A stretch of 64,000 nt of DNA, taken from positions 2,573,734-2,637,733 of the forward strand of contig OZ243952.1 of the NCBI GenBank assembly GCA_965214615.1, given 5' to 3'. Below the pieces are notes generated by a model, which was not told the DNA's origin, did not search any database, and saw only the letters and a program-made list of their open reading frames with translations. The DNA comes from Arenicellales bacterium. Lineage in GTDB: Bacteria; Pseudomonadota; Gammaproteobacteria; Arenicellales; JAJDZL01. The position numbers and the translations under genes were made by a program. Below, one piece after another: positions 33,301-38,373 of this stretch. Position 1 is the stretch's first letter, and the number at the start of each line of letters is the position of its first letter.

Positions 33301-36300
33301 AGTTCGAACCGAGCGAAACCTCCAAGGTTTCAGCACCCGCACCATCACCTTCTGCGAGATTGTCAGCTGGCACCCCTAGCACCAGGGTGGCAGTCTTGGT
33401 ACCCTCACCTCTGAGACGCACCATCGGCGTCGAAGTGTTTATGCCCGAGAGACGAACACCGGAATTCAGACCTGTACCAGGCTTGTCAGAAAGACCCCAA
33501 TCGTCGGTGGTTATTCCCATACCGCCAATAAGCAGCGGAACATCAATAATCTCACCGCCAACCAAAGCTCGAGACAAATCTATAGTAAACTCGACAGACT
33601 GTCCTTCGTCGACAGCACCTGATCCTACACGATTGAGGCTTACCACCGTGGGATCCTCGTCGTTAACGGCGACCGAAGCCGAGGACGACGTACCCACTAT
33701 ATAGCCGGCGCCTGCATCTAGAGTCGCAACAATATCGGGAGTGGCGCCAGTGGAGTAGTCTGTGCCATCGATGGTAGGGACGGTAAATGTCGCTGTTGTC
33801 GAACCCGCTAAAATAGACGACTGCCTCGAACGGGTCCCACCGCGGAGGGCATCGCTCGCCGTAAGATCCACAGTGAAGCTCGCAGTCGGCGCTGGCGTCG
33901 CGGTCACGGTGAAGGTCGCGGGCAATCCTTCTGCAACCGCAGAGTCGTTTGAAGCGATCGTAACGATAGGATTCGCTGAATTGTCGTTATCTTGTATGTA
34001 AACATTCCATAGAGGCCTTTGAGGCTGAATAAAGGTGTTGAAACTGTCAGGCGGCGTAGCGGAATCAATGGTGAATGGGCCAGCAAGTTCGAACACGAAA
34101 ACCTCTGTCGGTTCGCTTACATTGTCGTCGGTGATCGTGAACGGGACAGTCTTGGTCGTAACGCCTCGATTGAACACAAGCGTTCGATCTTGGAGGGAAA
34201 ACGAATAGTCGTTGGACGAAGCAGTAGTGGTACCGGAAATATCAACAACCGCAACAAGTCCTACCAACTGCTCTTCCGGAGGGTGACTCAGAGTAAATTT
34301 GAGGGTGCCGCTGTCACCTTCGGTAAATGTCGGGTATTCTACCTTGAGTGTCGGCACGCCAACTGCTGCAACATCGTTTACCTTGACTTCAAAGCGGTGC
34401 ATTGCGGGATTTGGATGCGGATTCGCACCACCACCGACATTGGTGCCCAGCGTGTTCGAGCCAAACGCCTCGCTAGAACCGAGCGCGAGCGCAAAAGTCT
34501 CAAAGTTCGACCCATTACCCTCCGCAGTGTAGTCACGTTTTGCTGTGAGTATCAGTGTCGCGGACTTGGCACCCGCTCCGGTGAAAATTACCACTGGAGT
34601 TGAACTTAGAAGACGCGATAAACTGACGCCTTTATTGAGTTTGGCATCAGAGTGTTTAGAAAGATTCCAATCGGCAGGCACTACCCCCGCGCCGCCGATC
34701 TCCAGCGGTACATGGACAATCTCACCAGCCTTCAGTGCTCGACCCAGCGTTACCTTGAATTCAACCGCCTCACCCTCGTCAATGGGACCAAAACCTGTCC
34801 GTGCGAGACTGACGACCGTAGGGTCACCGTCTTCAATCTCAACTGACGCGGAAATCGATTTTGCAATCGTGTAGCCGGTTCCCGAATCCACGGTCGCGAC
34901 GATGGTGCCGACGGTACCAGTGGGGTCGTCTACTCCGTCAGACGTACGGACGCTGAATGTCGCTGTATTCGCTGCCGCCGGAAACAACACCTGCTTCGAT
35001 CCGATCTCTGCGCTCGGCGCTCCATTGCCGGTCCCACTGACCATCATATTTACGTTAAAACTGTCTGCTGGAGTTGGCGTCGCAGTCAACGTAAAGGTCG
35101 CAGGGGATCCCTCTGTTACTGACGATGTGCCAGGAGCTATGGTGATATTTGGGTTTTTCGGGTTATCGTTGTCCAAAATACGGACATACCAGTAAGCTTC
35201 TACATCACCGGACCCGCCGCCACTTGTTGACAAAAAGCCGTAAGGCGGTGTTTTTGGATCTATTGTGGCTTCACTGGGGTGGAGACCCTGCAAACCGATC
35301 AAAAAAACTTCAGTGGACTCAACCGTGCTGTCATCGGTCGTCGTGAACGCAAACGTCTTGCTCGTTTCACCCGGGGCAAACGTATAACTGGTTGTGGTTA
35401 CTGGAAAAGATGCCGACTTGTAGTCCGCAGACCATGTAGCTTCATCGACACCTGGCGGGCAGACAGACGATGAGATTTGACTGCAACCAGCCCCGACAAA
35501 AAAGAGTCTGATATCGATACTTTGGCTTACTGGTCGGCTTAAAGTGAACTTGATTGTACCGCTGTCACCCTCAACAACAGTTGGAGCCTCGACTTTGAGC
35601 GTCGGAACAGGCAATACGAAGTCATTGACCTGTAACTCGAAGCTGTGCATTGCAGCATCCGTGTTGCGCCTGGCACCACCGCCGACATTGGTAAGGCGAG
35701 AATTCGCGTCGAATGCCGTGTCTGAACCAAGGATAAGCGTGAATGTTTCGCCACCCGCGTCGCCGCCTTCTGCAACATAGTCAATGTTCGTCTGCAGCAA
35801 AAGGGTTGCAGTTCTGGCTCCAGAATCTCTAAAACGCACCACCTTCGTTCTTTCAAAAACAGAAACTTCGGGCAAAGTGACTCCCGAGTTGATACTCGAA
35901 CCAGACTTCTTGGAAACAGACCAATCGCGCGACCAATTACTACCGCCGCCATTGATGCGCAACGGCACATCAATAATCTCACCTGCGACCAACTCTCGAG
36001 ACAGTGTCACTGTAAACTCAGCCGTCTCACCTTCGGTGACAGCGCCCGAACCCACGCGTGCGAGGCTCACCACTGTGGGATCATCGTCGGTGATCTCAAC
36101 CGTAGCCGAGGACGATGTACCCACTGTATAACCGGTTCCTGAATTCAAGGTCGCAACGACAGTACCACTGCTCCCTTTAGGCTTATCCACATCGTCTTGC
36201 ACTGTCCCGATGGTAAATGTCGCCGAACCCGCATTGTTCCCTGATGCTGGAATGGTCACTTGTCTCAAGATAGACTGATTGGTACCCTGGCTGCCTTCCC

Positions 36301-36487
36301 CAACGTTCACTTTGAGGTTTGATGTCGGCACTGGTGTAGCAGTCACCGTGAAGGACGCTGAAGCCCCCTCTGATACCGATGCGGAATCGGCGGCAATGGT
36401 AACTGTCGACGAAGCCGACGCATTTGATGTATTTGCGAGTACTGCGAGAAGTACCGCCAATACCACAAATTGCAGGAATTTATGCAT
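1..36487 (-). CDS. Giant secreted Calx-beta-like tandem-repeat surface protein (putative Ca2+-dependent adhesin). At least 12,162 aa lie in the window and the 3' end lies beyond coordinate 1
   Basis: My own minus-strand translation starts at ATG 36487: MHKFLQFVVLAVLLAVLANTSNASASSTVTIAADSASVSEGASASFTVTATPVPTSNLKVNV... The same frame (first base of each codon at a coordinate = 1 mod 3) still reads ...NGYTVGSVSSATVEVEDDD at 58..2. Spot translations are all in this frame: 1441-1480 KVTVDYAEISGGTA, 1801-1850 DTVIPKGVSYKNLSSA, 5371-5461 LDATVSYITVDGTATGGSDFTLIKSTDLVFGK, 7081-7141 GGASGSGSLSFAITDNEIKK, 8571-8690 ATVEVQDDDATTVTLARSGSGAVAEDGGTADVTVTLGRQ. The ORF track lists no minus ORF in this frame anywhere in 1-36487, which fits a single unterminated ORF. 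The GTATxGxD[FY] motif and D-rich module ends (DDD, DNDN) are the Calx-beta signature. Confidence 0.9.
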   Translation of the reverse strand, partial: MHKFLQFVVLAVLLAVLANTSNASASSTVTIAADSASVSEGASASFTVTATPVPTSNLKVNVGEGSQGTNQSILRQVTIPASGNNAGSATFTIGTVQDDVDKPKGSSGTVVATLNSGTGYTVGTSSSATVEITDDDPTVVSLARVGSGAVTEGETAEFTVTLSRELVAGEIIDVPLRINGGGSNWSRDWSVSKKSGSSINSGVTLPEVSVFERTKVVRFRDSGARTATLLLQTNIDYVAEGGDAGGETFTLILGSDTAFDANSRLTNVGGGARRNTDAAMHSFELQVNDFVLPVPTLKVEAPTVVEGDSGTIKFTLSRPVSQSIDIRLFFVGAGCSQISSSVCPPGVDEATWSADYKSASFPVTTTSYTFAPGETSKTFAFTTTDDSTVESTEVFLIGLQGLHPSEATIDPKTPPYGFLSTSGGGSGDVEAYWYVRILDNDNPKNPNITIAPGTSSVTEGSPATFTLTATPTPADSFNVNMMVSGTGNGAPSAEIGSKQVLFPAAANTATFSVRTSDGVDDPTGTVGTIVATVDSGTGYTIAKSISASVEIEDGDPTVVSLARTGFGPIDEGEAVEFKVTLGRALKAGEIVHVPLEIGGAGVVPADWNLSKHSDAKLNKGVSLSRLLSSTPVVIFTGAGAKSATLILTAKRDYTAEGNGSNFETFALALGSSEAFGSNTLGTNVGGGANPHPNPAMHRFEVKVNDVAAVGVPTLKVEYPTFTEGDSGTLKFTLSHPPEEQLVGLVAVVDISGTTTASSNDYSFSLQDRTLVFNRGVTTKTVPFTITDDNVSEPTEVFVFELAGPFTIDSATPPDSFNTFIQPQRPLWNVYIQDNDNSANPIVTIASNDSAVAEGLPATFTVTATPAPTASFTVDLTASDALRGGTRSRQSSILAGSTTATFTVPTIDGTDYSTGATPDIVATLDAGAGYIVGTSSSASVAVNDEDPTVVSLNRVGSGAVDEGQSVEFTIDLSRALVGGEIIDVPLLIGGMGITTDDWGLSDKPGTGLNSGVRLSGINTSTPMVRLRGEGTKTATLVLGVPADNLAEGDGAGAETLEVSLGSNLAFDAQVLGTNVGGGADPHASAAMNSFEIKVNDTTATSSAPTLKVKVPAVTEGEKGVIELVLSHPVSDPVQFFVRSLVCSDALAPRCPEDTGKAKLGEDFSTDFSQSSISLTFAPGETYKSLLYTTSDDSDVELTEVFYFALNSLDPSKAAIDLSTLPDVSKGRNSAGADAYWYVRIVDNDSTANPNVTIAPGDSPVTEGTDATFIVTAVPAPAAGIDVNVAISEVITGAASKQIGSQSVSVPASTGHASTATLTVTTADTVDEPTGRIVASIKPGNRYRVGAVASATVEVEDDDSTTVMLAREGSAGISEDGGTVDVAVTLGRQLAAGESVTVPLVVTGATVGTHYTYALTDDSDSISLSALSPHNTQNPAVIFSGVGARGAILRFTGVDNSDQTARTLSVDYGTGVRAPFSSGLSGGLTTTGSVAVPIIDDENMISVTGAQAAEGNAVEFAVTLPQAAPSGGVGIDYSTSNGRGEQSDASHQVATTADYTSASSETLTIAQGQRSGTVSIATTDDQTYESDHYFTLTLDSTNHFSLNLSANTAIGTITDEQDLPRFGFSTPSTAANEGDGTVTLTVEKTGTTLLDASLSYATFDATATGGSDYTVIKSTDLVFGKDDTSKELTVTLRDDAADEMTEAFTVDLIATAGARLDTASSHSIEIADNDATRVRLSSAAESAIAEDGETTLIIDLNRALTGDEKLSVPLVVWGDASLGSDYTLSGVALSGVSYTNLDSTDLVNEPPTVSFSGAANASRRAVLTVKSIDDAVDETDLESVIVGLGAIDASLAMNLDGGVTGSGLVDFPIEDNDDLPVLSIDAPSTTEGNKLQFTVTLTPQSEKDVSVDYAEISGGTATSGVDYDELPAGTLIFPAGETTRNISITVLDDNSDESMDETVTVQLLSADNATLEGGGITLNSMGTIIDVNPTVVSLARTGSGAIDEGQKIEFTVTLVRELIASEIVDVPLDIGGAGVTTADWFLLGKAGASLNTGVSLSGTGTSTPVVRFSGARAKVATLVLGTPIDNIAEGGGTNLETIDVALGTKAAFSAGALGTNVDGGAVPNPVAAMSSFDIVVNDITAASAVPKLKVNVPAVIEGESGTIAIALSHTVNQSIVVNYSASQCTTSIPCPQGTNAASTASDLSFSSGSITFTPGETVKTISFATTDDNSNESTEAFLFVLDLLNSTKDLVFDAGTPADGTTVSEAYWFVRIHDNDNPANPSIAIAAGAAPAEGTGARFTVTATPTPSANITVNVTVSDIGGGAASGQTGARQVTIPASGNSAGTASFTVGTANDEMDNPKGTAIVATVNSGSGYKTGSSTSAIAEITDDEPTVVSLARVGSGAIDEGEAVEFTVTLSRELVAGEIIDVPLRINGGGSGWWRDLSVSRKSGSSINSGVNLPEVHFSERTRVVRFAGSGARTATLLLQTRIDNVAEGGDAGGETFTLNLGSDMAFDANSRRTNVGGGARRNADAAMHSFDLQVNDAVVPVPTLKVEAPTVIEGDSGAIKLILSRPSSRSISFRVYVGSIDCDRFSEEICPPDVGTARRPGDYNSSSFPRTTTLYTFDPGETSKTFAFTTSDDSTVESTEIFHISMLDLHPTEATIDSKTPPAGFYAFSGGSADVNAYWFIRILDNDNPANPNITIAPGTSPVTEGTAAGFTVTAAPAPATDLTLDISVSETGNIADSNDVGSKQVTIPAAGSQNEGTATLTVSTIDDTVDERNGAILATLDSGSGYTPGTSSSATVDVLDDDATTVTLARSGSGGVAEDGGTVDVTVTLGRELVDGESVTVPLSVTGATVRRHYTYVLTDGGSGVAHDTKLPHSSQNLAVIFSGAGAKTATVRFTAVDNNDQTSRVLNIAYGTGIRAPSSTGLSGGINAAGSIAIPIVDDDAGISLAAASAAEGNAVEFTVTLPQAAPSGGVDIVYSTSDGRAQSTDADYQVATSSDYTAASGATLAIAQGQRSGTVSIATTDDQAYESDHYFKLTLDSTNHFSIDPSASSAIGTITDEDDVPSFEFSTASTTASEGDGTLTLTVEKTGTTLLDSTLNFTTVDNTATGGSDFIAIKDAKLVFGKDDVSKDITVSLVDDTADEPVQAFGAVLSADAHSQLGSTVSHSIEITDNDATEVTLSSRFDGINTGETDRNYAVTIELNRALTGDETLAVPLVFGGAATFGADYWVSAFGSKIPGVRFMNLGSTNLTDNPPTIVFSGEDNAVRSASIVINIRFDDIDENDESLTVELGTLDEKSGTNLGGGATGSGTVGLTINDWSGSPVLSIDAPSAAEGGTLRFTVTLTPMSGKEVTVDYAEIAGGTATQAVDYTALTAGTLTFTPGQTTQHIDVAVLDSNTIDESIGKTMKVQLSNAVNASLMGGGNTLDGTGTIADNDPTVVSLARTGSGAIDEGKAFEFTVTLARTLIAGEIIDVPLKIGGTGVTTADWSLVTKSGMAINTGVSLSNTGTMTPVLRFEGAGAQIATLLIGAKIDNTAEGGGANQETFEIALGSNADFDANTLGTNVLGGADPHASAAMNSFEVVVNDITGSVKPTLRIDIPTVTEGESGAIELTLSRPADKRLVFNFGIDECGTSYTSPCPPGRKPASLDVDFSVQARYPPLLVGFAPGETKKSIPYTTTDDSSVESTEIFYLLLFGDFNANEIEIDPSTLPDDSVDYPHWHAAILDNDNPANPNIAISSGTSPVTEGTDASFQVTATPAPTANLTVDVAVSEAGSFTAAGGIGSKQVTIPSATSQNAGTATLTVSTDDDKVDELDGAIVATVDSGSGYTVGKPPSATVEVQDNDATTVTLARSGSGGIAEDGGTVDVTVTLGRPLVAGESVRAPVVFTGATHATHYTYVFEGGTGVTLYTDEFPFFADNPVVNFTGAGAKQAKFTFTAVNNNDQTERTLLVRFGTGGVQFGPSSSGLSGGISPGRSVSVPILDDDAGVGVTDASAPEGDAVEFTVTLPQAAPSGGVDIVYSTSDGRGQSADAAHQVATGAADYTAASSATLTIAEGEKSGTVSIATSDDQTYESDHYLTLTLASANPFSLNSSASSAVGTITDEDDVPSFEFSTSSTTAAEDDGTVTLSVARTGTTLVDATLSYTTVDGTAIGGGDFVAIAKTEFIFGKDDVSKNIIVTLTDDNDDEPAEAFSVDLGADAHAKLGTTTSHSIELADSDATEVTLTSPVGTAITEMGGTSGGRANFTVELGRALEGDETLEVPLIFGGAAEFLTDYILSTNYTRGADDFIPKGVSYKNLSSADIVNLPPTIVFTGPVGASRRATLSIRAVNDRFDETDESVTLGMGTLDANSGTNLGGGATGSGTVAFSITDNDDEPALSIDSPSAGEGNTLRFTATLTPASGKEVTADYAEITGGTATQGVDYTALTSGTLTFASGETTQHIDVMVLDSNALDESITKTMKVRLSNAVNATFAGGGVTLAGTGAITDNDPTVVSLARIDSGAIDEGQTAEFTVTLSRALIAAEIIDVPLNIGGTGVTAGDWFLGRKPGTGLNTGVSLLGTGTSSPVVRFENGAAEIATLVLGARIDNTAEGGGTNLETYEIALGSNAAFDAGTLGTNVGGGADPHTTDAMNSFDIAVNDIIGSATPTLKVEVPTVTEGGNGTIDLTLSRAASQSISIDLSTSRCSVGIPCPQGAKDASDSSDYSTDAPQSSTTVTFAPGEKFKTYSLTTVDDSEIESTEVIVFRLANLNSTEAAIDSTTPPDGTVSAESYWFIRILDNDNPANPNVTIAPGTSVAEGSPAIFTVTATPVPTANLTVDITVSDVGNSAASGQTGSKSVVIPASGLNAGSAQLSVGTVADSLDELPGQAGAIVATVDLGTGYTVGTLSSAKVEMKDDTPTVVSLARVGSGAIDEGETIEFTVTLSRSLIADEIIDVPLTIGGTGVTASEWSLVAKSGTGFNTGVTVSGENSLSPVVRFANAGSETATLVLEPQIDNTAEGGSANQEIFEISLGSNSAFDASTLGTNVDGGADPHSSGARNSFDVTVNDAAIIPPTLRVDVPVVTEGDQGTIDLTLSRASTKPVTINYIFWVCNLFDSPPCPTGTERAELDIDFVGVPSTFTLRFEPGQVKKSIPLTTIDDNAIESTEVFLFFMGMPNNLEATIDPSTPPDFSDIDFYWHVRILDNDNPANPNITITPDASPVTEGTNAAFTVTATPAPSVNTTVNLTVSETGNVAANSSTGSKQVQIPASGSLNAGTAKLTVSTVADTVDESTSTITARLHSGAGYTVSAASLAAVEVDDDDPTTITLTRTGSGGIAEDGGMADVTVSLGRALVAGESVTVPLTVTGASVTTHYSYILSEDDTGVYLETSGLHSSQDPAVRFSGADARTATLTFSAVDNNDQSARTIVINFGTGSRAPLFSRGSDGVSTHGSVSVPIVDDDAGISVTGARVPEGSAVEFTVTLPQAAPGGGVDIVYSTSDGRGESTDAAYQVATSSDYTAASEATLTIAQGQRSGTVSIATTDDQTYESDHFFTLTLDSTNHFSLNQSANSAIGTITDEGDVPSFEFSTSSSAVDEGDGTATLTVQKTGTTLVDATLSYTTVAATATSDIDFTAIKRADLVFGKDDSSKDITVSLSDDADDEPTETFTVDLIAGTHARLGSTSSRTIEITDNDATQVTILSAANKSFGESAPRQLATFSVELGRTLRDDETLAVPLAFGGDADFGIDYALSTEITEHSGSVIPKGVQFLNLTSTDHVNKPPTIVFTGVAGALRLASLALEPIEDTVEEDSESLTVSLGTLNASSGTDLDGGATGSGTVIFEITDDDYPTLSIDSPSVVEGADSGNASLRFAVTLTPASTRSVTVDYAEISGGTATQGVDYEALSAGTLTFAAGETIKYIDITVLDDSVDESIDETVAVRLSSAVNATLTGGGVTLDSTGTISDGNPTLVSLARTDSGAINEGETVGFTVTLARTLIFGDIIDVPLDIGGAGVTPADWGLSKKAGASLNTGVTLYGETTSTPVVRFEGVGAKTATLTLEAKHDDHAEGGGTNQETYTIALGANTAFDDSKLGTNVGGGADPNTAGELNSFDVTVNDRSALPLLKVEVPTVTEGDSGAIEFTLNRPMDKQIAPIVNVRVCGISTTAPCPAGTKPATPDVDFTMQPEPSQINARFPNEFHIKFAPGETKKSLSFTTTDDSAVEPTEVFDLWIDLFNSKGVAFDPSTPPDVTDVRDHWQARILDNDNPANPNITISPIASPVTEGADARFQVTATPAPTTNLTVGVTVGESGNVTAAGGIGSKQVTVPAAGRSNAGTATLIVSTVADAVDEPDGAILATVNSGSGYTVATATSSATIEVQDYNATTVMLARSGSGAVAEDGGTADVTVTLGRQLVAGESVTVPLAVTGATATTHYTYVLTDGSTGVTLNTQSPHNAQNPAVIFSSSGARTATLTFTAVDNSDQMARTLNIAYGTSARAPSSSGLSGGINATGSAAIPILNDDAGISVTDAGAQEGNAVEFTVTLPQAAPGGGVDIVYSTSDGRGESTDAAYQVATSSDYTAASSATLTIAQGQRSGTVSIATTGDQIYESDHYFTLTLNSTNHFSINQSAKSAIGTINDEDDVPSFEFSTSSAVAAEDDGTLTLTVEKTGTTLLYAQLSYKTVDGTATGDSDFTLIKSTDLIFLKDDTSKDVTVTVTDDADDELAESFTVDITADEHAKLGNLSSHSIEITDNDPIEVTLSSPVGATITELGGTSGGRTNFTVELSRVLTGDEALEIPLVFSGDAVFGRDYELTTDYNFASSGSSDSPVVFFKNLASDDPVNKPPTIIFTNLPLTSKLGILGLRAIDDSSDEELESVTIDLATLDANSGTNLDGGAAGSGTVTFSIVDNDDEPALSIDAPSVAEGTNGATSTLRYTVTLAPVGGKEVTVDYAGISGGTATQGVDYKPLTAGTLTFSAGETTQHIDITVFDDDIDETADETVAVQLSNPVNAKLTGGGATLDGTGTITDADPTIATLARTGSGAMDEGQTVEFTVTLSRTLLAGEIIDVPLEIGGTGVTAADWFVGENPAMGLNTGVSLPAANTSSSVVRFSGAGAQTATLLLGAKVDNTAEGGGANLETYEIALGSNAAFDANTLGTNVDGGADPNSTLSKNRFDIKVNDIKGLAVPKLKVDIPTVIEGDSGTIVLTLSRPAEKSIPFEVVAVKSLCTSASIPPCPTGTEAAQYDSDFTSNFSRIPVNLTFAPAEITKSLSFATTADNAAETTEIFEFLIGSLDSTEATIDSNTPADGFTIGSNPYWYVRIHDNDNPANPSITIAPGASPVTEETDASFTVTATPAPAANITVNLSVSDVENVAASGQTGSKQVVIPATGANAGTATLAIGTAADAVDESTGSISGAVTADLKSGTGYTVGTASSATVEIVDGDPTVVSLARVGTGTIKEGETVEFTVTAARELIAGEIIDVPLDIGGSGVTVSDWRLSAKSGSGLNTGVSLSAANTSIPLVRFEGVKAKTATLVLEARFDHLSEGGEAGAENFTIALGSDTAFGANTLGTNVGGGAKPNASASMNRFDVTVNDVASAVPTLSVKIPAIAEGETGTIELTLSEAATVPIGITVWASTIQGSNAASFQDFSGAFTSGVSLSFAPGQTSKTISFSVIDDNAIESTERFWFRIFDLESNEAVIDSTTPSDGTYNGIPHWHVDIHDNDNPANPNISIAAGKSPVSEGTAATFTVTATPTPNSNVTVDITVNDIGGGAVNGEAGARQVTIPASGNSAGTASFAVGTTTDEVDKPHGISIIANVDPGTGYTTGSVASATVEIFDDDPTVVSLARVGSGAIDEGESIEFTITLSRELVAGEIIDVPLRINGGGRLWWHDLSMSKKSGSSINLGVNLPAVAYDERNQVVRFKGSGARTATLLLQTSIDNVAEGGDAGAEIFTLNLGSDTEFDSDSRRTDVSGGARRNADAALHSFDLQVNDAVAPVPTLKVEAPTVVEGESSAVKLTLSQPASRSIEIGLFIGRLNCTGPDSNDCPPDVGTASFEDFQLPSYPPRPLIFAPGETSKTFAFTTTDDSEVEPTEVFIISLRLLFPGEATLDSNTPPYGFYPTSGGTYGTEAYWLARILDNDNPNNPNITIAPRTSPVTEGTGAGFTVTAAPAPATDLTVNVSVSESGNVAASDGVGSRQVTVPAAGSQNEGTATLTISTIADTVDELNSAILATLDSGTGYTLGTSTSATVDVLDDDVTTVTLARTGSGGIFEDGGTVDVTVTLGRELVDGESVTVPLAVTGATVATHYTYVLTDGSTGVTLNTQNPHSMQIPAVIFSDAGAKAATLRFTAVDNNDQTARTLNIAYGTGARAPSSIGLSGGISATGSLTIPIVDDEAGIGVTDASASEGNAVEFTVLLPQDAPGGGVDIVYSTSDGRGESTDAVYQSASGSDYTTASGATLTIAQGQRSGTVSIATTNDQTYESDHYFTLTLDSTNHFSLNQSANSAIGTITDEGDVPSFEFSTSSSAVDEGDGTATLTVQKTGTTLLDATLSYITVDGTATGGSGNDFTLIRSADLVFGKDDTSKDITVTVADDDDDEPAESFTVDISEGEHAKLGNLSSQSIEITDNDATKVTLSSRFNGSSPREAERSFAVTIELNRALTGDETLAVPLVFGGDATFGLDYTLSLSESSYTGVSFMNLDSADHKNKPPTVKFSGVANASQRAVLLLWIQNDLLIESTESITVGLGTLDGNSGTNLDGGAIGSGEIGFTIRDNDALPVLSIDDPSVTEDGNMQFKVTLAGTAAEAVTVDFSETAGDTATQGQDYEALSAGTLTFAVGETTKFIDITVVDDAIDDPTEETVAIQLSNLVNATFKGGGDTLEATGTITDNDPTLVSLARTGSGTIDEGQTVEFTVKLVRALVAGEIIDVPLEIGGTGVTTADWSVSKKTGLSFNTGITIFGTDTSSPTVRFKGAGAWTATLVLETLVDNTAEGSGADSETFKVSLGSNSAFNADALESNVAGGAVPHTSAARNSFNVTVNDITKRMLKVEVPTITEGESGTIKITLSPAASEQITLNFGLYPCDALNTPPCPPGTKSAHLGNDYGLQGSGNTVFDAVFAPGETEKSFSIATVLDNLVETTEVFNVRLRNNPDDKGVSIDPSTPPDDSGRLLHWNAFILDVDNPANPNITIAPGMSSVTEGANTSFTVTATPAPETNLTVDVKVSETGNFAKARIRSKQVIIPVAGGHNAGTATLIISTVDDFVDEPDGAIHATVDSGSGYTVGTASSATVEVQDDDATTVTLARSGSGAVAEDGGTADVTVTLGRQLVAGESVTVPLAVTGATATTHYTYVLTDGSTGVTLNTQSPHSAQKPAVIFSSSGAKTATLRFTAVDNSDRTARTLNIAYGTGARVPSSTGLSGGISATGSVAISILDNDAGVSVTDASAPEGDAVEFTVTLPQAAPIGGVDIVYSTSNGRGQSTDAAYQVATSADYTAASSATLTIAQGQRSGTVSIATTDDQIYESDHYFTLTLDRTSRFSLNQRANSATGTITDDDDAPSFEFSTTSTSAAEDDGTVTLTIKKIGATLLDATVSYITVDGSATSGSDFTLVKSTDLVFGKRDASKNITVTLNDDADDEPTESFNVDIAAGEHARLGSTTSHAIEIADNDAIEVTLSSSVGAAIAEDGSAIFTVQLGRALAGDETLEVPLNFSGDATFGVDYKLDRDYLVGGGNIKDPNGVSYRNLSSNDPVKRPPTIVFTAVAQASRDTTLAIRSIDDSVKNEGHESVIVGLGTLDANSGTNLGGGASGSGSLSFAITDNEIKKRTLSVVVPTVTEGESGTIELTLTPAASVAKTIEFILYACDAIHRPCPPGTNSAHQINDFTLQGGMNKYDAVFASGETKKSISFTTTEDNEVELTEVFNFALKDHPDSQQITIDPSTPSDGSGRLFHWSGFILDNDNPANPNITIAPGTSPVTEGTNAIFTVTAAPAPASNLIVDVIVGESGNVTAASGIGSKQVVIPAAGQNAGTGTLSVGTVADAVDEPDGTVVATVDSGNGYTVGTASSAIVEVEDDDATTVTLARSGSGAVAEAGGTADVTVTLGRHLVAGESVTVPLAVTGATATTHYTYVLTDGSTGITLDTQSPHGAQNPAVIFSSSGAKTATLRFTAVDNADQTARTLNIALGTGTRAPSWTGLSGGISTTGSVAISILDNDAGVGVTDASAPEGNAVEFTVTLPQAAPSGGVDIVYSTSDGRAQSQDPVYQSATSSDYTTASGATLTIAQGEQSGTVSIATTDDQIYESDHYFTLTLNSTNHFSLNQNANSATGTITDDDDAPSFEFSTSSTNAAEDDGTLTLTVEKTGATPLDATVSYITVDGTATGGSDFTLIKSTDLVFGKNDTSKDITVAITDDADDEPTESFTVDITAGEHAKLGSMASHAIEITDNDPVGVTLSSPGVTITEDGSTTGGRTTFTVELSHALTGDETIEVPLDIGGDAVFGEDYSLTVDYAFKGFTSLPKGVRYKNLASTDLVNQPPTIVFSGVAGASKLAILGLKAIDDSVDEAQESVTIGLGTLIVNSDVSLAGGAAGSGMVSFAIEDDDGRVLSIDAPSVGEGVSGTTSTLRFTVELSAASSRQVTVDYAETSGGTATQGVDYRALTAGTLTFAAGETTKYIDITVLNDGQHELMDETVKVQLSSPVNASLNGGGVTVDGTGTIIHDPVEVSLARSGSGAIDEGQTVELTVTLSRVLVADEIVDVPLDIGGTGVTTADWNLSKKAGATLNSGVSLSSTNTSTPVIRFKNAGAKIATLILEANVDNTAEGAGTTLETFKVALGSNTAFGNPAFGTNVKRGAAPHASASMNSFEVVVNDITGSVKRTLRVDVPAVVIEGGSGTVEMTLSRSFDELTIFGFDGSSCGSYTPCPPGTKPASYGADYSIISEYDQSYQFVMFAAGETKQSFTFTTTDDSLVESTEYIAILQYPEHSNKIEIHPSTPPDYAITPDDAERPWRFWHVAILDNDNPANPYITISSGTSPVTEGTDASFQVTATPAPTANLTVDVAVSEVGNFTPAGGIRSKQVIIPSATSQNAGTATLTVSTDGDKVDELDGAIVATVESGSGYTVVEPPSATVEVQDNDATTVTLARSGSGGIAEDGGTADVTVTLGRQLADGESVTVPLAVTGATATTHYTYGLTDGSTGVTLNTQSPHSAQHPALIFSSSGGRTATLTFTAVDNSDQMARTLNIAYGTSARAPSSSGLSGGINATGSVAIPILDDDAGISVTAASAPEGNAVEFTVTLPGAAPSGGVDIVYSTSDGRSHPTDAAYQVATSADYTAASNATLTIAQGQRSGTVSIATTNDQTYESDHYLTLTLDSTTHFSLNSSARSAIGTITDADDVPSFEFSTSSTTVAEDDGTVTLSVAKTGTTLVDATLSYTTVDGTAIGGSDFTATTMTSFVFGKDDVSKNIIVTLTDDNDDELVEAFSVDLGADAHAKLGTTTSHSIELVDSDATEVTLSSPVGTAITERGGTNRGRTNFTVELGRVLKGDEMLEVPLIFGGAAEFLTDYRLSTDYTFDTVIPKGVSYKNLSSADIAKQPPTIVFTSVAGALGRATLSIQAVNDRIDEVDESVTLGLGTLDADSGTNLGGGAAGSGTVAFSITDDDNEPVLSIDDPSVVEGTNGTASTLRFTVTLAPRSSKKVTVDYAEISGGTATQGVDYSALTAGTLTFGAGETTQYIDITVLNDGINEVVDETVKVRLSSPVNATLDGGSVTLGATGTITDADPVVVSLSRTGSGAIDEGQSIEFKVTLARELTAGEIVDVPLDIGGTGVTTADWVVGEKHGATINTGVNLSGSSTSTPVVRFEDAAAQSAILVLWAQVDNTAEGNGANRETFEIALGSTTAFGEPTLGTNVMSGAAPHASASMNSFDVTVNDITGSALRKLKVEVPTVTEGERGTIEITLTPAASTEKELEFNLYACDFLNTPPCPPGTKSAHQVNDYRLQNGQTRFDAVFAPGETKKSVSFTATEDNEVESTEVFNFSLRSDPGEKQITIDPSTPPDDSARLLHWSAFILDNDNPANPNITIAPGTSPATEGTDASFTVTATPAPASNLTVDVIVGESGSVTAASGIGSKQVIIPVAGSQNAGTGTLRVSTVADAVDEPDSTVVATVDSGNGYTVGSVSSATVEVEDDD
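351..3505 (-). repeat. Super-repeat SR16 (long: A-H)
   Basis: Junction motifs at ~3505 and ~350. C-module marker ORF 2643..2834. The H copy reads LYACDFLNTPPCPPGT (606-652). Confidence 0.7.
3506..6675 (-). repeat. Super-repeat SR15 (long: A-H)
   Basis: Approximate module limits: A 6352-6675, B 5925-6350, C 5560-5925, D 5225-5560, E 4765-5225, F 4400-4765, G 3950-4400, H 3506-3950. C-module marker ORF 5817..6113. The H copy reads DGSSCGSYTPCPPGTK (3781-3830). Confidence 0.7.
6676..9000 (-). repeat. Super-repeat SR14 (intermediate: A-B-C-D-E-H; modules F and G missing in frame)
   Basis: The unit is only ~2.33 kb. The E module end runs straight into an H module: ...GGASGSGSLSFAITDNEIKKRTLSVVVPTVTEGESG (7141 downward). 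Antisense ORF 6933..7331 uniquely fuses the H-type and E-type shadow motifs. C-module marker ORF 8145..8336. Confidence 0.75.
9001..12120 (-). repeat. Super-repeat SR13 (long: A-H)
   Basis: Junction motifs at ~12120 and ~9000. C-module marker ORF 11262..11453. Confidence 0.7.
12121..13372 (-). repeat. Super-repeat SR12 (short: A-G-H), subfamily Sa
   Basis: The G variant is VPLRINGGGRLWWHDLSMS (12861-12915) and the H copy has GRLNCTGPDSNDCPPD (12395-12445). Off-frame marker ORF 12574..12930. Confidence 0.75.
13373..14570 (-). repeat. Super-repeat SR11 (short: A-G-H)
   Basis: Junction motifs at ~14570 and ~13372. The H copy (ELTLSEAATVPIGITVWASTIQGSNAASFQDF, 13600-13700) lacks the Cys pair. 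Confidence 0.7.
14571..17745 (-). repeat. Super-repeat SR10 (long: A-H)
   Basis: Junction motifs at ~17745 and ~14570. C-module marker ORF 16884..17075. Confidence 0.7.
17746..20912 (-). repeat. Super-repeat SR9 (long: A-H)
   Basis: Junction motifs at ~20912 and ~17745. A divergent C-module marker ORF lies at 20097..20351. Confidence 0.7.
20913..22128 (-). repeat. Super-repeat SR8 (short: A-G-H)
   Basis: Junction motifs at ~22128 and ~20912. No C-module marker ORF lies inside it. Confidence 0.7.
22129..25280 (-). repeat. Super-repeat SR7 (long: A-H)
   Basis: Junction motifs at ~25280 and ~22128. C-module marker ORF 24417..24746. The H copy reads TSRCSVGIPCPQGAKD (22381-22430). Confidence 0.7.
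25281..28402 (-). repeat. Super-repeat SR6 (long: A-H)
   Basis: Junction motifs at ~28402 and ~25280. C-module marker ORF 27546..27737. Confidence 0.7.
28403..29660 (-). repeat. Super-repeat SR5 (short: A-G-H), subfamily Sa
   Basis: The G variant is VPLRINGGGSGWWRDL (29161-29210) and the H copy has VYVGSIDCDRFSEEICPPDV (28690-28745). Off-frame marker ORF 28780..29223. Confidence 0.75.
29661..32752 (-). repeat. Super-repeat SR4 (long: A-B-C-D-E-F-G-H)
   Basis: Junction motifs at ~32752 and ~29660. The C module is marked by antisense ORF family member 31902..32093 (MPTPPLGAACGSVT...). Confidence 0.7.
32753..33978 (-). repeat. Super-repeat SR3 (short: A-G-H)
   Basis: Junction motifs at ~33978 and ~32752. 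The H copy reads FFVRSLVCSDALAPRCPEDTG (33028-33090). Confidence 0.7.
33979..35160 (-). repeat. Super-repeat SR2 (short: A-G-H)
   Basis: Bounded by H->A junction motifs at ~35160 and ~33978. Its H copy (KFTLSHPPEEQLVGLVAVVDISGTTTASSNDYS, 34200-34300) lacks the Cys pair. Confidence 0.7.
35161..36412 (-). repeat. Super-repeat SR1 (short: A-G-H), subfamily Sa
   Basis: It directly follows the signal peptide. The G module has the variant VPLRINGGGSNWSRDW (35921-35970) and the H module has CSQISSSVCPPG (~35450-35490). Off-frame marker ORF 35539..35982. It ends at the H->A junction (..LDNDNPKNPN) at ~35160. Boundaries are +/-15 nt. Confidence 0.75.
36413..36487 (-). other. Sec-type signal peptide of the giant protein (about 23-25 aa)
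   Basis: MHK (positive n-region), FLQFVVLAVLLAVLA (hydrophobic core), NTSNA|SA (small-x-small cleavage motif). There is no lipobox cysteine. Confidence 0.6.
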
Positions 36488-36505
36488 GCCCCAATTTGCG
36501 GGGGA

Positions 36506-36515
36506 GGGGGGGGGG
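36506..36515. repeat. Homopolymeric G10 tract (C10 on the coding strand) in the leader of the giant gene, preceded by a G5 run at 36500-36504
   Basis: Read directly: 36500-36516 = gggggaggggggggggt. It lies 19-28 nt upstream of ATG 36487 and downstream of an in-frame ATG at 36544. That upstream ATG is itself preceded by an in-frame TGA at 36545-36547. Confidence 0.9.
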
Positions 36516-37161
36516 TGACGAGGAAGGAGTAAAACGCCCCACATTCATAACGATTTGGACGATCAGTCCGACGACATCGTTCAAAGCGCGCAGGTTTGGC
36601 CAATACCGCCTTTCAGAACGAAGAAACTCAATGCCGGTGATTGATCCGTTATGATCTGTATTATCCGCCTGTGCGTTGAGATTGCGATTCGTAAATGCAC
36701 AATTGCATCCTGCCTCAATGCTGATCCCAAATACTCTGGCCTGTGCTTTTGTGCTGATCGTAACCATCACTGGATTCTTCACCGAGAGTCTTTTGACTCT
36801 CCAACTTAAGGTAGTACGAAAGCAATCGACTTACCGATTGCGAAATATAGTAATTATGTTGAAATATTGTTGAGCAATCTTATTAAAGTGACAAAATCAC
36901 CCCACACCCCAATTGACGGGATTAGTTAAACCTGAGTTTGGCCATTTGTCGTAAAAACGTTGCCGGGCGGACAAGCCACTCCGTAAAGATTAGCTACCTC
37001 TATGGCGTATTCTGACAATGGCGATATGACGCGAACATTTTATAGCGGGCGGGGAGAATTGCCAACCGCTTTTCATGAAATATTTATTACCTTTCCATAT
37101 TCAAAAATCGACTCACGCAAGCATGATTATGCGCAACGGCACCTTACAAAAAGGAGATTCC

Positions 37162-37876
37162 ATGAAATTTGACTTCGCAATCAAGCACGTATTCAACACC
37201 GACCCAAGAGCAGTCGCTTCGTATCTGCGATACGTCGTTTCGCCTGAGCTTCTCGCCGCTCTCGAACTGCCCACCTTGCGTCGCGTACCGTCGGACTGGG
37301 TGAGCACGAATCTGGTGCAGCGCTTCGGCCTGGGTGGTCGACTACCGGGGCGACAGTCACACGCTGGTGGTGTTCTTTCATTTCGAGTTCCAGTCCCGGA
37401 TCGATCCGGGCATGCCGTTTCAGATGCTCACTTACGCGGGACTGCAGTATGAGGCGCTGTGGAAGGTGCGCGGCAAGACCGATTTCGGCAAAGGCCTGAT
37501 GCCGACCGTGATTGAGACGATGTTAGAACCTGGCAGCGAGGAGATTGCAAGGTATCGGCCAAGTCACCGCTACGTCGTCGTTGAAGAGGTCGAACTGCTC
37601 AAGCGCGGCGAGGCGCACCCGGGCGATTTTGCCGGAGCGCTCATGTTGCTGCGCCATCACGATGAAGCTGATGAGAAGTTGATCGAAGCGGTGCAATTCA
37701 TCCAGGAGAATGCGGACGAAGAGTCTGAGGCATATCAGGAATTGGCGAACGAGACGGCGAAGCGGATAATTGACTCCAACCGGGAGGTCAGATCAATGAA
37801 ACAATTGAAACAGGATGTGCATGACATGCGGAGCAATGTACCAATCCACAGTACAGGAGAAATGCGGGTTAGGTGA
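37162..37876 (+). pseudogene. Rpn/YhgA-like (PD-(D/E)XK) recombination-promoting nuclease/putative transposase, frameshifted
   Basis: An AAGGAG ribosome-binding site (37151-37156) precedes ATG 37162. The N-terminal part MKFDFAIKHVFNTDPRAVASYLRYVVSPELLAALELPTLRRVPSDWVSTNLVQRF is in the frame of ORF 37075..37452. The catalytic core ...VVDYRGDSHTLVVFFHFEFQSRIDPGMPFQMLTYAGLQY continues in the +1 frame (ORF 37334..37876). The E-x-Q-S/D-x-x-M-P-x-R/Q-M-L-x-Y pattern is typical of the Rpn family. The frame switch is around 37320-37335. Confidence 0.55.
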
Positions 37877-37909
37877 ATTGGGGGAAGACCCTGACTTGTA
37901 TCTGTTGCG

Positions 37910-38224
37910 TTATAGAGCGATTTGCTCAAGAGGCTGGATACCGCCAATGTTGACACTTGTAGCCGCTACGTCATAGGTATTTTGCAAATTGAGCCAAAAC
38001 TGTGGCGTTGATCCGAAAAAACGAGACAGACGCACTGCGGTGTCGACGGTGATCGGCGAAGTCTCCTTAACTATTCGCTCAATTCTACTACGCGGCACTC
38101 CTATTCGTTTGGCAAGATCGCCTGCGCTCATCTCTAGCGGCATAAGAAATTCACACTTCAATATTTCTCCTGGATGACTAGTTTGTTTCAACACAACCAG
38201 AACCTCGTCCTCAGTGGTAATCAA
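37910..38224 (-). CDS. higA: HigA-family antitoxin (XRE-type HTH)
   Basis: HPGEILKCEFLMPLEMSAGDLAKRIGVPRSRIERIVKETSPITVDTAVRLSRFFGSTPQFWLNLQNTYDV matches the HigA/VapI consensus (HPGE.L.EEFL.PLG.S...LA..LGV.R..I..I..G.R.IT.DTALRL...FGTS..FWLNLQ..YDL). The start is TTG at 38224 and overlaps the higB remnant stop by 14 nt. Confidence 0.85.
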   Translation of the reverse strand: MITTEDEVLVVLKQTSHPGEILKCEFLMPLEMSAGDLAKRIGVPRSRIERIVKETSPITVDTAVRLSRFFGSTPQFWLNLQNTYDVAATSVNIGGIQPLEQIAL

Positions 38225-38297
38225 TTATTTCAACGTCTTCTGGACCTTGATCTGTCCAAACGAAACAAATTCTCCACTGATCATTGATGCGAATGAA
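38211..38297 (-). pseudogene. higB: higB toxin remnant: only the last 28 codons remain, 5'-truncated at the tRNA
   Basis: The minus-strand translation FIRINDQWRICFVWTDQGPEDVEIIDYH* equals the C-terminus of HigB 'killer protein' family toxins (...INDQWRICFRW..G...DVEIVDYH). The roughly 65 N-terminal codons are missing. The frame runs straight into the CCA end of tRNA-Ala at 38298. Confidence 0.75.

Positions 38298-38373
<76 letters not shown>

Follow-up and report, generated by a model that had tools for sequence, protein, structure and literature searches.

A C10 tract before the start codon of a giant Calx-beta gene in an Arenicellales bacterium: a strain-specific run and a candidate phase-variation switch

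A run of ten cytosines lies immediately upstream of a giant gene encoding Calx-beta domains in the 64,000-nucleotide (nt) stretch of Arenicellales bacterium DNA analysed here (contig OZ243952.1 of assembly GCA_965214615.1, positions 2,573,734 to 2,637,733; hereafter the window), and it raises the question of whether slippage in this run switches or tunes the expression of the gene, as a sequence-only reading of the window had proposed. We compared the locus with the one related strain found, represented by L081, a 143-kb ENA metagenome contig, in which the same gene and leader are present and the homopolymer is not. The best explanation, to which we would give an even chance, is that C10 is a real, strain-specific and slippage-prone run within a conserved pyrimidine-rich untranslated leader, and that its length has little or modest effect. 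A switch is nonetheless plausible, neither proven nor refuted, and the tract is a candidate rather than a demonstrated member of the simple sequence repeat (SSR) contingency loci, with which it shares tract length and class of gene.

On the forward strand, positions 36500-36516 read GGGGG-A-GGGGGGGGGG-T; that is, the coding strand carries C10 (36515-36506), a single T (36505) and C5 (36504-36500), and 18 nt (36505-36488) separate the C10 from the ATG at 36487-36485. Direct reading and a script bore out these letters and distances as the sequence-only reading had given them, along with its other structural observations, namely the lack of a good Shine-Dalgarno (SD) sequence before this ATG, an in-frame ATG at 36544 that directly follows a TGA (36545-36547) and would make the tract coding, and an open reading frame (ORF) at 36480-36782 that runs through the tract and would be fused to the giant frame by a 1-nt contraction to C9. 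No other homopolymer of G or C in the window exceeds 6; the shorter runs comprise ten G5, 27 C5 and one C6. An equivalent run arose in 6 of 100 dinucleotide-preserving shuffles of the window, which makes C10 mildly unusual, and in gltX loci of other gammaproteobacteria (1.24 Mb in total) a run of at least 10 is met about once every 400 kb. C10 is real and rare without being vanishingly improbable, and what is notable about it is its position rather than its existence. Ten-base runs of G or C are by nature liable to slipped-strand mispairing, and C10 has the length of the hypermutable tracts in SSR contingency loci (a G/C run of ~8-9 or more). The stretch that holds it (36500-36530) also contains the most purine/pyrimidine strand-skewed 25-mer of the whole window (23/25).

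Window and L081 share the gene order gltX, tRNA-Ala, a helix-turn-helix gene and the giant gene. They are 99.1% identical over 12.4 kb of housekeeping flank and ~94% identical from the leader through the initial 8.4 kb of the giant gene. The alignment at the tract sets GTTTTACTCCTTCCTCGTCACCCCCCCCCCTCCCCCGCAAATTGGGGCATG of the window against GTTTTGCTCCCTCCT, a 6-nt gap and TCCCACCCCTCTCCCGCAAATTGCGGCATG of L081. At the tract itself, L081 reads GCTCCCTCCT, the same gap and TCCCACCCCTCTCCC; it is thus 6 nt shorter, with an interrupted pyrimidine stretch, no run longer than 4, and TCCCACCCC as the counterpart of C10 (36506-36515). The sequence-only reading had looked to tract length in related genomes for a test of its proposal, and the one strain compared lends it no positive support, having no homopolymer before the same start codon and within the same leader. 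L081 does keep a 25-nt stretch with 23/25 pyrimidines. Around the tract the two strains differ by 7 substitutions and the 6-nt indel in ~50 nt, against an average of ~5% for the leader; few of its parts are as diverged, which fits weak constraint on the exact sequence of the site. The 68 nt just upstream of the diverged site (36531-36598), which include both upstream ATGs discussed below, are identical in the two strains. Because L081 lacks the homopolymer and yet keeps the start codon and leader, the homopolymer would not be a conserved device of the giant gene, at least as judged from this one comparison strain. The conserved feature of the start region appears instead to be the C/T-rich leader stretch of 25-31 nt together with a predicted hairpin around the AUG.

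We suggest that C10 would have arisen recently, by base substitution and slippage, within an older C/U-rich stretch of 25-31 nt common to both strains. From what is established about such runs, some polymorphism of tract length would be expected in the population. The outcome of slippage would most probably be little or modest change in expression rather than an evolved ON/OFF switch, because a 1-nt change would not frameshift the giant gene, would alter no recognisable promoter spacer and would leave the predicted start-codon structure as it is.

This argument depends on where the giant gene begins. The ATG at 36487 is most likely its start codon, and it is favoured because the gene call in L081 uses the equivalent ATG and because a canonical signal peptide follows directly (its counterpart in L081 is MPKLLKFVVLAVLLAVLASASNA); the tract would accordingly lie in untranslated sequence. 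From this ATG, a script followed the frame for 12,162 codons, as far as the left end of the window, without meeting a stop, and most of the protein is made up of Calx-beta domains (Pfam PF03160), with E values of 1e-83 to 1e-105 per 3,300-amino-acid (aa) segment. With a Sec-type signal peptide, judged by eye, and Calx-beta domains, the product would belong to the surface-protein class expected of a contingency locus. The 20 nt before the ATG (..CCCCGCAAATTGGGGC ATG) contain no properly spaced SD sequence, and a GGGG stops 1 nt short of it.

The sole promoter-like site with conserved hexamers lies far from the tract: its TTGGCA and TAAAAT are unchanged in L081, while 4 of the 17 spacer bases differ. 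If used, this site, placed by its consensus match, would imply a leader of ~540 nt. Hexamers can also be drawn around the tract itself, as TCGTCA (36521-36516, 4/6), a 17-nt spacer of C10-T-C5-G, and CAAATT (36498-36493, 3/6), but they fall below the threshold of the promoter scan, and the -35-like TCGTCA is present only in the window strain, being deleted in L081. Neither the promoter scan nor the L081 alignment revealed conserved promoter hexamers flanking the tract, which at the sequence level does not have the promoter-spacer position of the fim/porA/opc type. The hairpin predicted around the start codon has a folding energy of -15.3 kcal/mol (z = -2.5) in the window and -10.3 kcal/mol (z = -1.75) in L081 (13620-13658). 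When the tract was varied from C8 to C12, the minimum-free-energy structure and the unpaired probability of the start region were identical (0.37 and 0.41 in two contexts).

Several other observations concern the leader. The closing pair of the hairpin is lost in L081 by a C-to-A (Gln-to-Lys) change, which provides no compensatory support for the fold. Taken as a whole, the 571-nt leader is predicted to be no more stably folded than shuffled sequences (z = -0.56), and no tandem repeats were found near the start of the giant gene. A known RNA element was sought with Rfam at a permissive threshold, which matched only tRNA; an RfaH ops antitermination site had no match in the leader, with matches elsewhere at chance frequency; and a Rho-utilisation site was dropped since the C-rich, G-poor patch extends over just ~35-60 nt and is too short. 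A second leader block identical in the two strains, of 88 nt (36720-36807, minus strand), is flanked by sequence that differs by 5-20% and holds a perfect 7-bp hairpin, GAGAGTC-AAAA-GACTCTC, without an Rfam family match. The pyrimidine stretch of L081 (13600-13612) contains CCTCCTT, which is also the anti-Shine-Dalgarno core of 16S rRNA, where the window has CTCCTT; this identity may be due to chance in a C/T-rich stretch.

Among the alternatives, a serious one, if on the whole unlikely, is that the tract is a transcript-level contingency locus, acting as a volume control or an ON/OFF switch, in which slippage among C9, C10 and C11 alters promoter geometry or the early transcript and thus the mRNA of the giant gene. 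In its concrete version, TCGTCA-17-CAAATT would be the promoter, with the transcript starting at or next to the ATG, and such a leaderless mRNA would explain the missing SD sequence. A run of ten G/C next to a surface-protein gene whose ATG has no SD sequence is consistent with this possibility, as are hexamers readable at the optimal spacing of 17 nt and the local hypervariability of the site between strains. In Bordetella fim (C-stretch) and in Neisseria porA (poly-G) and opc (poly-C), the tract separates a defined -35 from a defined -10 hexamer. The window tract resembles these in being made of C/G and in its closeness to the 5' end of a gene for a surface protein; unlike them, it is flanked only by the poor 4/6 and 3/6 hexamers, which the promoter scan did not report and whose -35 part is missing from L081 although L081 retains the gene and its start. 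A better site with conserved hexamers lies ~540 nt upstream, leaderless mRNAs are uncommon in gammaproteobacteria, and no variation in tract length was seen in the one comparison strain. A closer precedent is uspA1 of Moraxella catarrhalis, where the mRNA level differs ~20-fold between G10 and G12 in a G(n) tract that precedes the ORF, and tracts of G8 to G12 phase-vary and differ in length between strains and within cultures (PMC7302503). Both loci have a run of about ten G/C upstream of, and not within, the ORF of a large surface adhesin, with no promoter-spacer position evident. The differences are that the related strain has an interrupted C/T stretch here, with no length variant seen in that one strain, and that the host is an uncultured environmental gammaproteobacterium rather than a mucosal pathogen. 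What keeps a transcript-level effect open is that such effects are unpredictable from sequence, that the gene class fits, and that the 5' end of the gene is mosaic and fast-evolving.

Switching at the level of translation could take two forms. One would involve a candidate 22-codon upstream ORF (uORF) that runs through the tract and whose TAA overlaps the start of the giant gene (ATGCATAA), 5 nt into the main ORF. Ribosomes that finish the uORF on the AUG (AUGCAUAA) would open the hairpin and re-initiate at the SD-less AUG, and a 1-nt slip would switch translation: C10 would give termination on the AUG and re-initiation, C9 an in-frame fusion to the giant ORF, and C11 third-frame reading across the AUG to 36343, which would occlude it. 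The frames computed for C8 to C12 confirm that the reading frames of the upstream ATGs vary with tract length. The uORF start lies in the 68-nt identical block, and the overlap of stop and AUG is retained in L081 (MNVGRFAPSFPPLSRKLRHA followed by the stop, ATGCCTAA) despite the 6-nt indel and the 7 substitutions, as an indel of this length leaves the frame unshifted; in both strains, therefore, the uORF stop overlaps a main start that lacks an SD sequence and is enclosed by a predicted hairpin, as coupling would have it. The arrangement is like the termination-reinitiation overlaps of the ATGxxTAA type, but unlike established coupling it involves a putative uORF without an SD sequence of its own, and we know of no described system in which coupling is governed by a slippery homopolymer. 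A multiple-of-3 indel has a prior chance of one in three, conservation of the uORF peptide breaks down across the tract, translation of the uORF is hypothetical, and the longer ORF in the same frame evolves as non-coding sequence. We consider this form improbable. The other, which we consider quite improbable, is a coding switch in which translation starts at ATG 36544, the tract encodes PPPS near the 5' end, and a slip of +/-1 is a frameshift ON/OFF event. Intragenic poly-G/C frameshift switches occur in Neisseria pilC, where poly-G lies in the part encoding the signal peptide, in contingency genes of Campylobacter and Helicobacter, and in Moraxella mid/hag, and the window tract resembles them in length and gene class; unlike them, it lies 18 nt outside the ORF that begins at the most likely start, and would be coding only if ATG 36544 were used (MWGVLLLPRHPPPSPANWG-MHKF). 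That ATG is in frame in both strains (MWGVLLPPSHPSPANCG-MPK in L081), the frame being preserved by the 6-nt indel, and the SD criterion cannot decide between two ATGs that both lack one. However, the 19-aa extension would bury the canonical signal peptide, the gene call in L081 uses the downstream ATG, and the extension is poorly conserved, with 4 non-synonymous and 2 synonymous changes and a 2-codon indel in 19 codons.

A coding tract was also considered in the +1 frame, that of the 100-aa ORF at 36480-36782, which joins the giant frame at C9 or C12. We rejected it as a real gene: it has no Pfam or NCBIfam family, its differences from L081 are 10 non-synonymous to 1 synonymous, and HMMER against 1.84 billion representatives recovered only its own 95-aa annotation, P0172, and weak matches to repeat proteins. 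These matches (fn3, ankyrin and leucine-rich repeat (LRR) proteins) are mutually inconsistent and cannot all be homologous. The ORF is probably not a gene, as it evolves like non-coding DNA. Its residues 40-94 (36483-36662, minus strand) weakly resemble the end of an fn3-like repeat and its linker (..Y.W..RA.N...FT...P.LP), with a pairwise E of 7e-4 to several individual P0173 repeats; the C-terminal half might be the decayed remnant of an adhesin exon of older date, which is doubtful given the similar ankyrin and LRR matches. It is very improbable that the run, or the precise number of bases in it, reflects an error of consensus or assembly in a metagenome-assembled genome (MAG). Homopolymer length is the commonest residual consensus error of long reads, and the name of the L081 contig (ctg..._42x_l) indicates a metagenome assembly, but the flanks align cleanly to that independent assembly, which is C-rich at the same site, and an error would shift the length by 1 or 2 rather than make a 10-mer. 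The source annotation P0172 carries the ORF with the same tract at 100% identity, although it comes from the same assembly.

It is worth noting that several points weigh against our preferred reading of the tract as a strain-specific run of little consequence. The comparison that suggests a lack of conservation covers two strains (n = 2), and in species where contingency tracts are functional, some strains often carry them in an interrupted ("locked") form. The putative transcription start is placed by a consensus match. The difference between strains is of 6 nt and keeps in frame both ATG 36544 and the overlap of uORF stop and AUG; retention of both frames would be expected if one of them mattered. 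A costly surface protein with a mosaic 5' end (dS of 0.29, against 0.027 for gltX) is of the class that typically carries switches. Finally, the uspA1 tract shifts mRNA strongly without obvious promoter-spacer logic (PMC7302503), and because of this precedent, failure to see a mechanism in silico is weak evidence. As for the proposal of the sequence-only reading, tract length and gene class fit a switch, whereas its suggestion that expression is switched gained no support from these analyses.

The mosaic character of the giant gene was seen in synonymous (dS) and non-synonymous (dN) divergence from L081. The first 400 codons (window 35288-36487, minus strand, against L081 from 13634) have dS of 0.29, dN of 0.13 and dN/dS of ~0.5, while dS falls to 0.02 in codons 1201-1600 and is 0.027 in gltX, 2 kb away; on these rates, the 5' end of the gene is mosaic or recombinant. 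The full gene may greatly exceed the part seen in the window. In L081, the coding region for Calx-beta/fn3/Big_12 extends from ~91.4 kb down to 9.3 kb of the contig (~82 kb) and is called as several ORFs, including one of 4,071 aa at the 5' end and one of 5,179 aa at the 3' end, against at least 12,162 unbroken codons in the window strain. This would mean either that frameshifts or stops break up the gene in L081 or that the window strain has one continuous ORF of record-class size. The coordinates compared were 1-36487 (minus strand) of the window, 13634-21416 of L081 and 1-1768 of a further sister contig, L083.

Searches of GTDB genomes, JGI metagenomes and the protein collection turned up no further copy of the locus. 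The N-terminal 400 aa of the giant protein had no close relative in the protein collection, the GTDB representative genomes or the JGI metagenome contigs; the best match in the protein collection was 49% identical (range 38-49%), among MAG proteins of several phyla. These relatives are incomplete proteins, encoded by MAGs of Acidobacteria, Synechococcus, Acidimicrobiales, Defluviicoccus and Rhodospirillaceae, and their spread across phyla suggests a domain type common to one shared habitat; their bin names resemble those of sponge-associated bacteria. The conserved 30-mer adjoining the tract had no exact match in metagenome contigs. Among 80 gltX loci from other gammaproteobacteria (up to 63% identity), the giant gene was never next to gltX; GTDB representative genomes contained no GltX closer than 63% identity, a level reached in an Arenicellales MAG. 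In the next relative, contig L082 (GltX 74% identical), the same tRNA is followed instead by toxin-antitoxin (PhdYeFM/PIN) and Fic genes. Cluster look-ups found two assemblies only of this species-level lineage.

Upstream of the giant gene lie, in order, a unique leader of 640 nt, a decayed YhgA/Rpn-like gene, an orphan HigA gene, tRNA-Ala(GGC) and gltX (Table 1). The Rpn-like copy is 84% identical to an intact 324-aa paralogue (P0180) and has a frameshift and a 17-aa deletion; the leader is not part of this repeat, as similarity to the intact copies begins at 37129 and 36488-37128 is unique. Intact paralogues of 312-328 aa occur in at least three copies in the source genome, and one lies directly downstream of the 3' end of the giant locus in two sister contigs (L083 3001-3987; L084 3001-3975). 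With Rpn genes at both ends, the giant locus is therefore bracketed by members of this family. The HigA gene is an orphan antitoxin or a transcription factor near the leader of the giant gene. Window and L081 are 99.1% identical up to 37557, after which identity drops with indels, and the edge of the variable region (window 37557-38373; L081 11584-12400; L082 12577-16301) at tRNA-Ala(GGC) looks like an insertion hot spot for islands.

Table 1. Features of the locus, with positions in the window.
Feature	Position	Strand	Remark
C10 homopolymer (G10 on the forward strand)	36506-36515	-	Tract in question; read directly and by script
C5 run, one T (36505) away from C10	36500-36504	-	CTCCC in L081
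Pyrimidine-rich (C/U) leader stretch holding the tract, ACTCCTTCCTCGTCAC10TC5	36500-36530	-	
Giant ORF, more than 12,162 codons, many Calx-beta domains	1-36487	-	Runs off the window; no stop codon
Most likely start ATG of the giant gene, without Shine-Dalgarno	36485-36487	-	L081 13634 called as start
Sec-type signal peptide, MHKFLQFVVLAVLLAVLANTSNA-SASS	36419-36487	-	Judged by eye, no predictor
Hairpin around the start codon, stem CGCAAAUUG / CAAUUUGUG	36463-36501	-	Predicted fold
Candidate 22-codon uORF, MNVGRFTPSSSPPPLPRKLGHA and stop	36480-36548	-	Through the tract; ATG 36548 to TAA 36482-36480
TGA (36547-36545), then in-frame alternative ATG (36544-36542)	36542-36547	-	
Orphan 100-aa ORF	36480-36782	-	Tract lies within it; +1 frame
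Best promoter-like match upstream of the giant gene, TTGGCA-17-TAAAAT	37037-37065	-	10/12 consensus match
Decayed multi-copy YhgA/Rpn-like (Transposase_31) gene	37129-37839	+	Upstream bound of the leader
HigA-family antitoxin gene (TIGR02607, E 4e-31)	37910-38224	-	No room for HigB before the tRNA
tRNA-Ala(GGC)	38298-38373	-	gltX housekeeping synteny on one side, variable region on the other

If the tract does not switch or tune expression, it is a caution that a C-rich leader can give rise, as a strain-specific by-product, to a G/C homopolymer next to a gene for a surface protein, and that one related genome suffices to show that the homopolymer is not the conserved element. If the uORF were to act as described, improbable as that is, this would be translational-coupling phase variation of a gene of at least 36 kb (possibly ~80 kb) in a probably host-associated gammaproteobacterium. 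More generally, if the tract does switch or tune expression, an extremely costly giant adhesin would be under stochastic control, the tract length in metagenomic reads would be a simple read-out of its expression in situ, and contingency-locus biology, known from mucosal pathogens, would also take in gammaproteobacteria that are uncultured and environmental or symbiotic.

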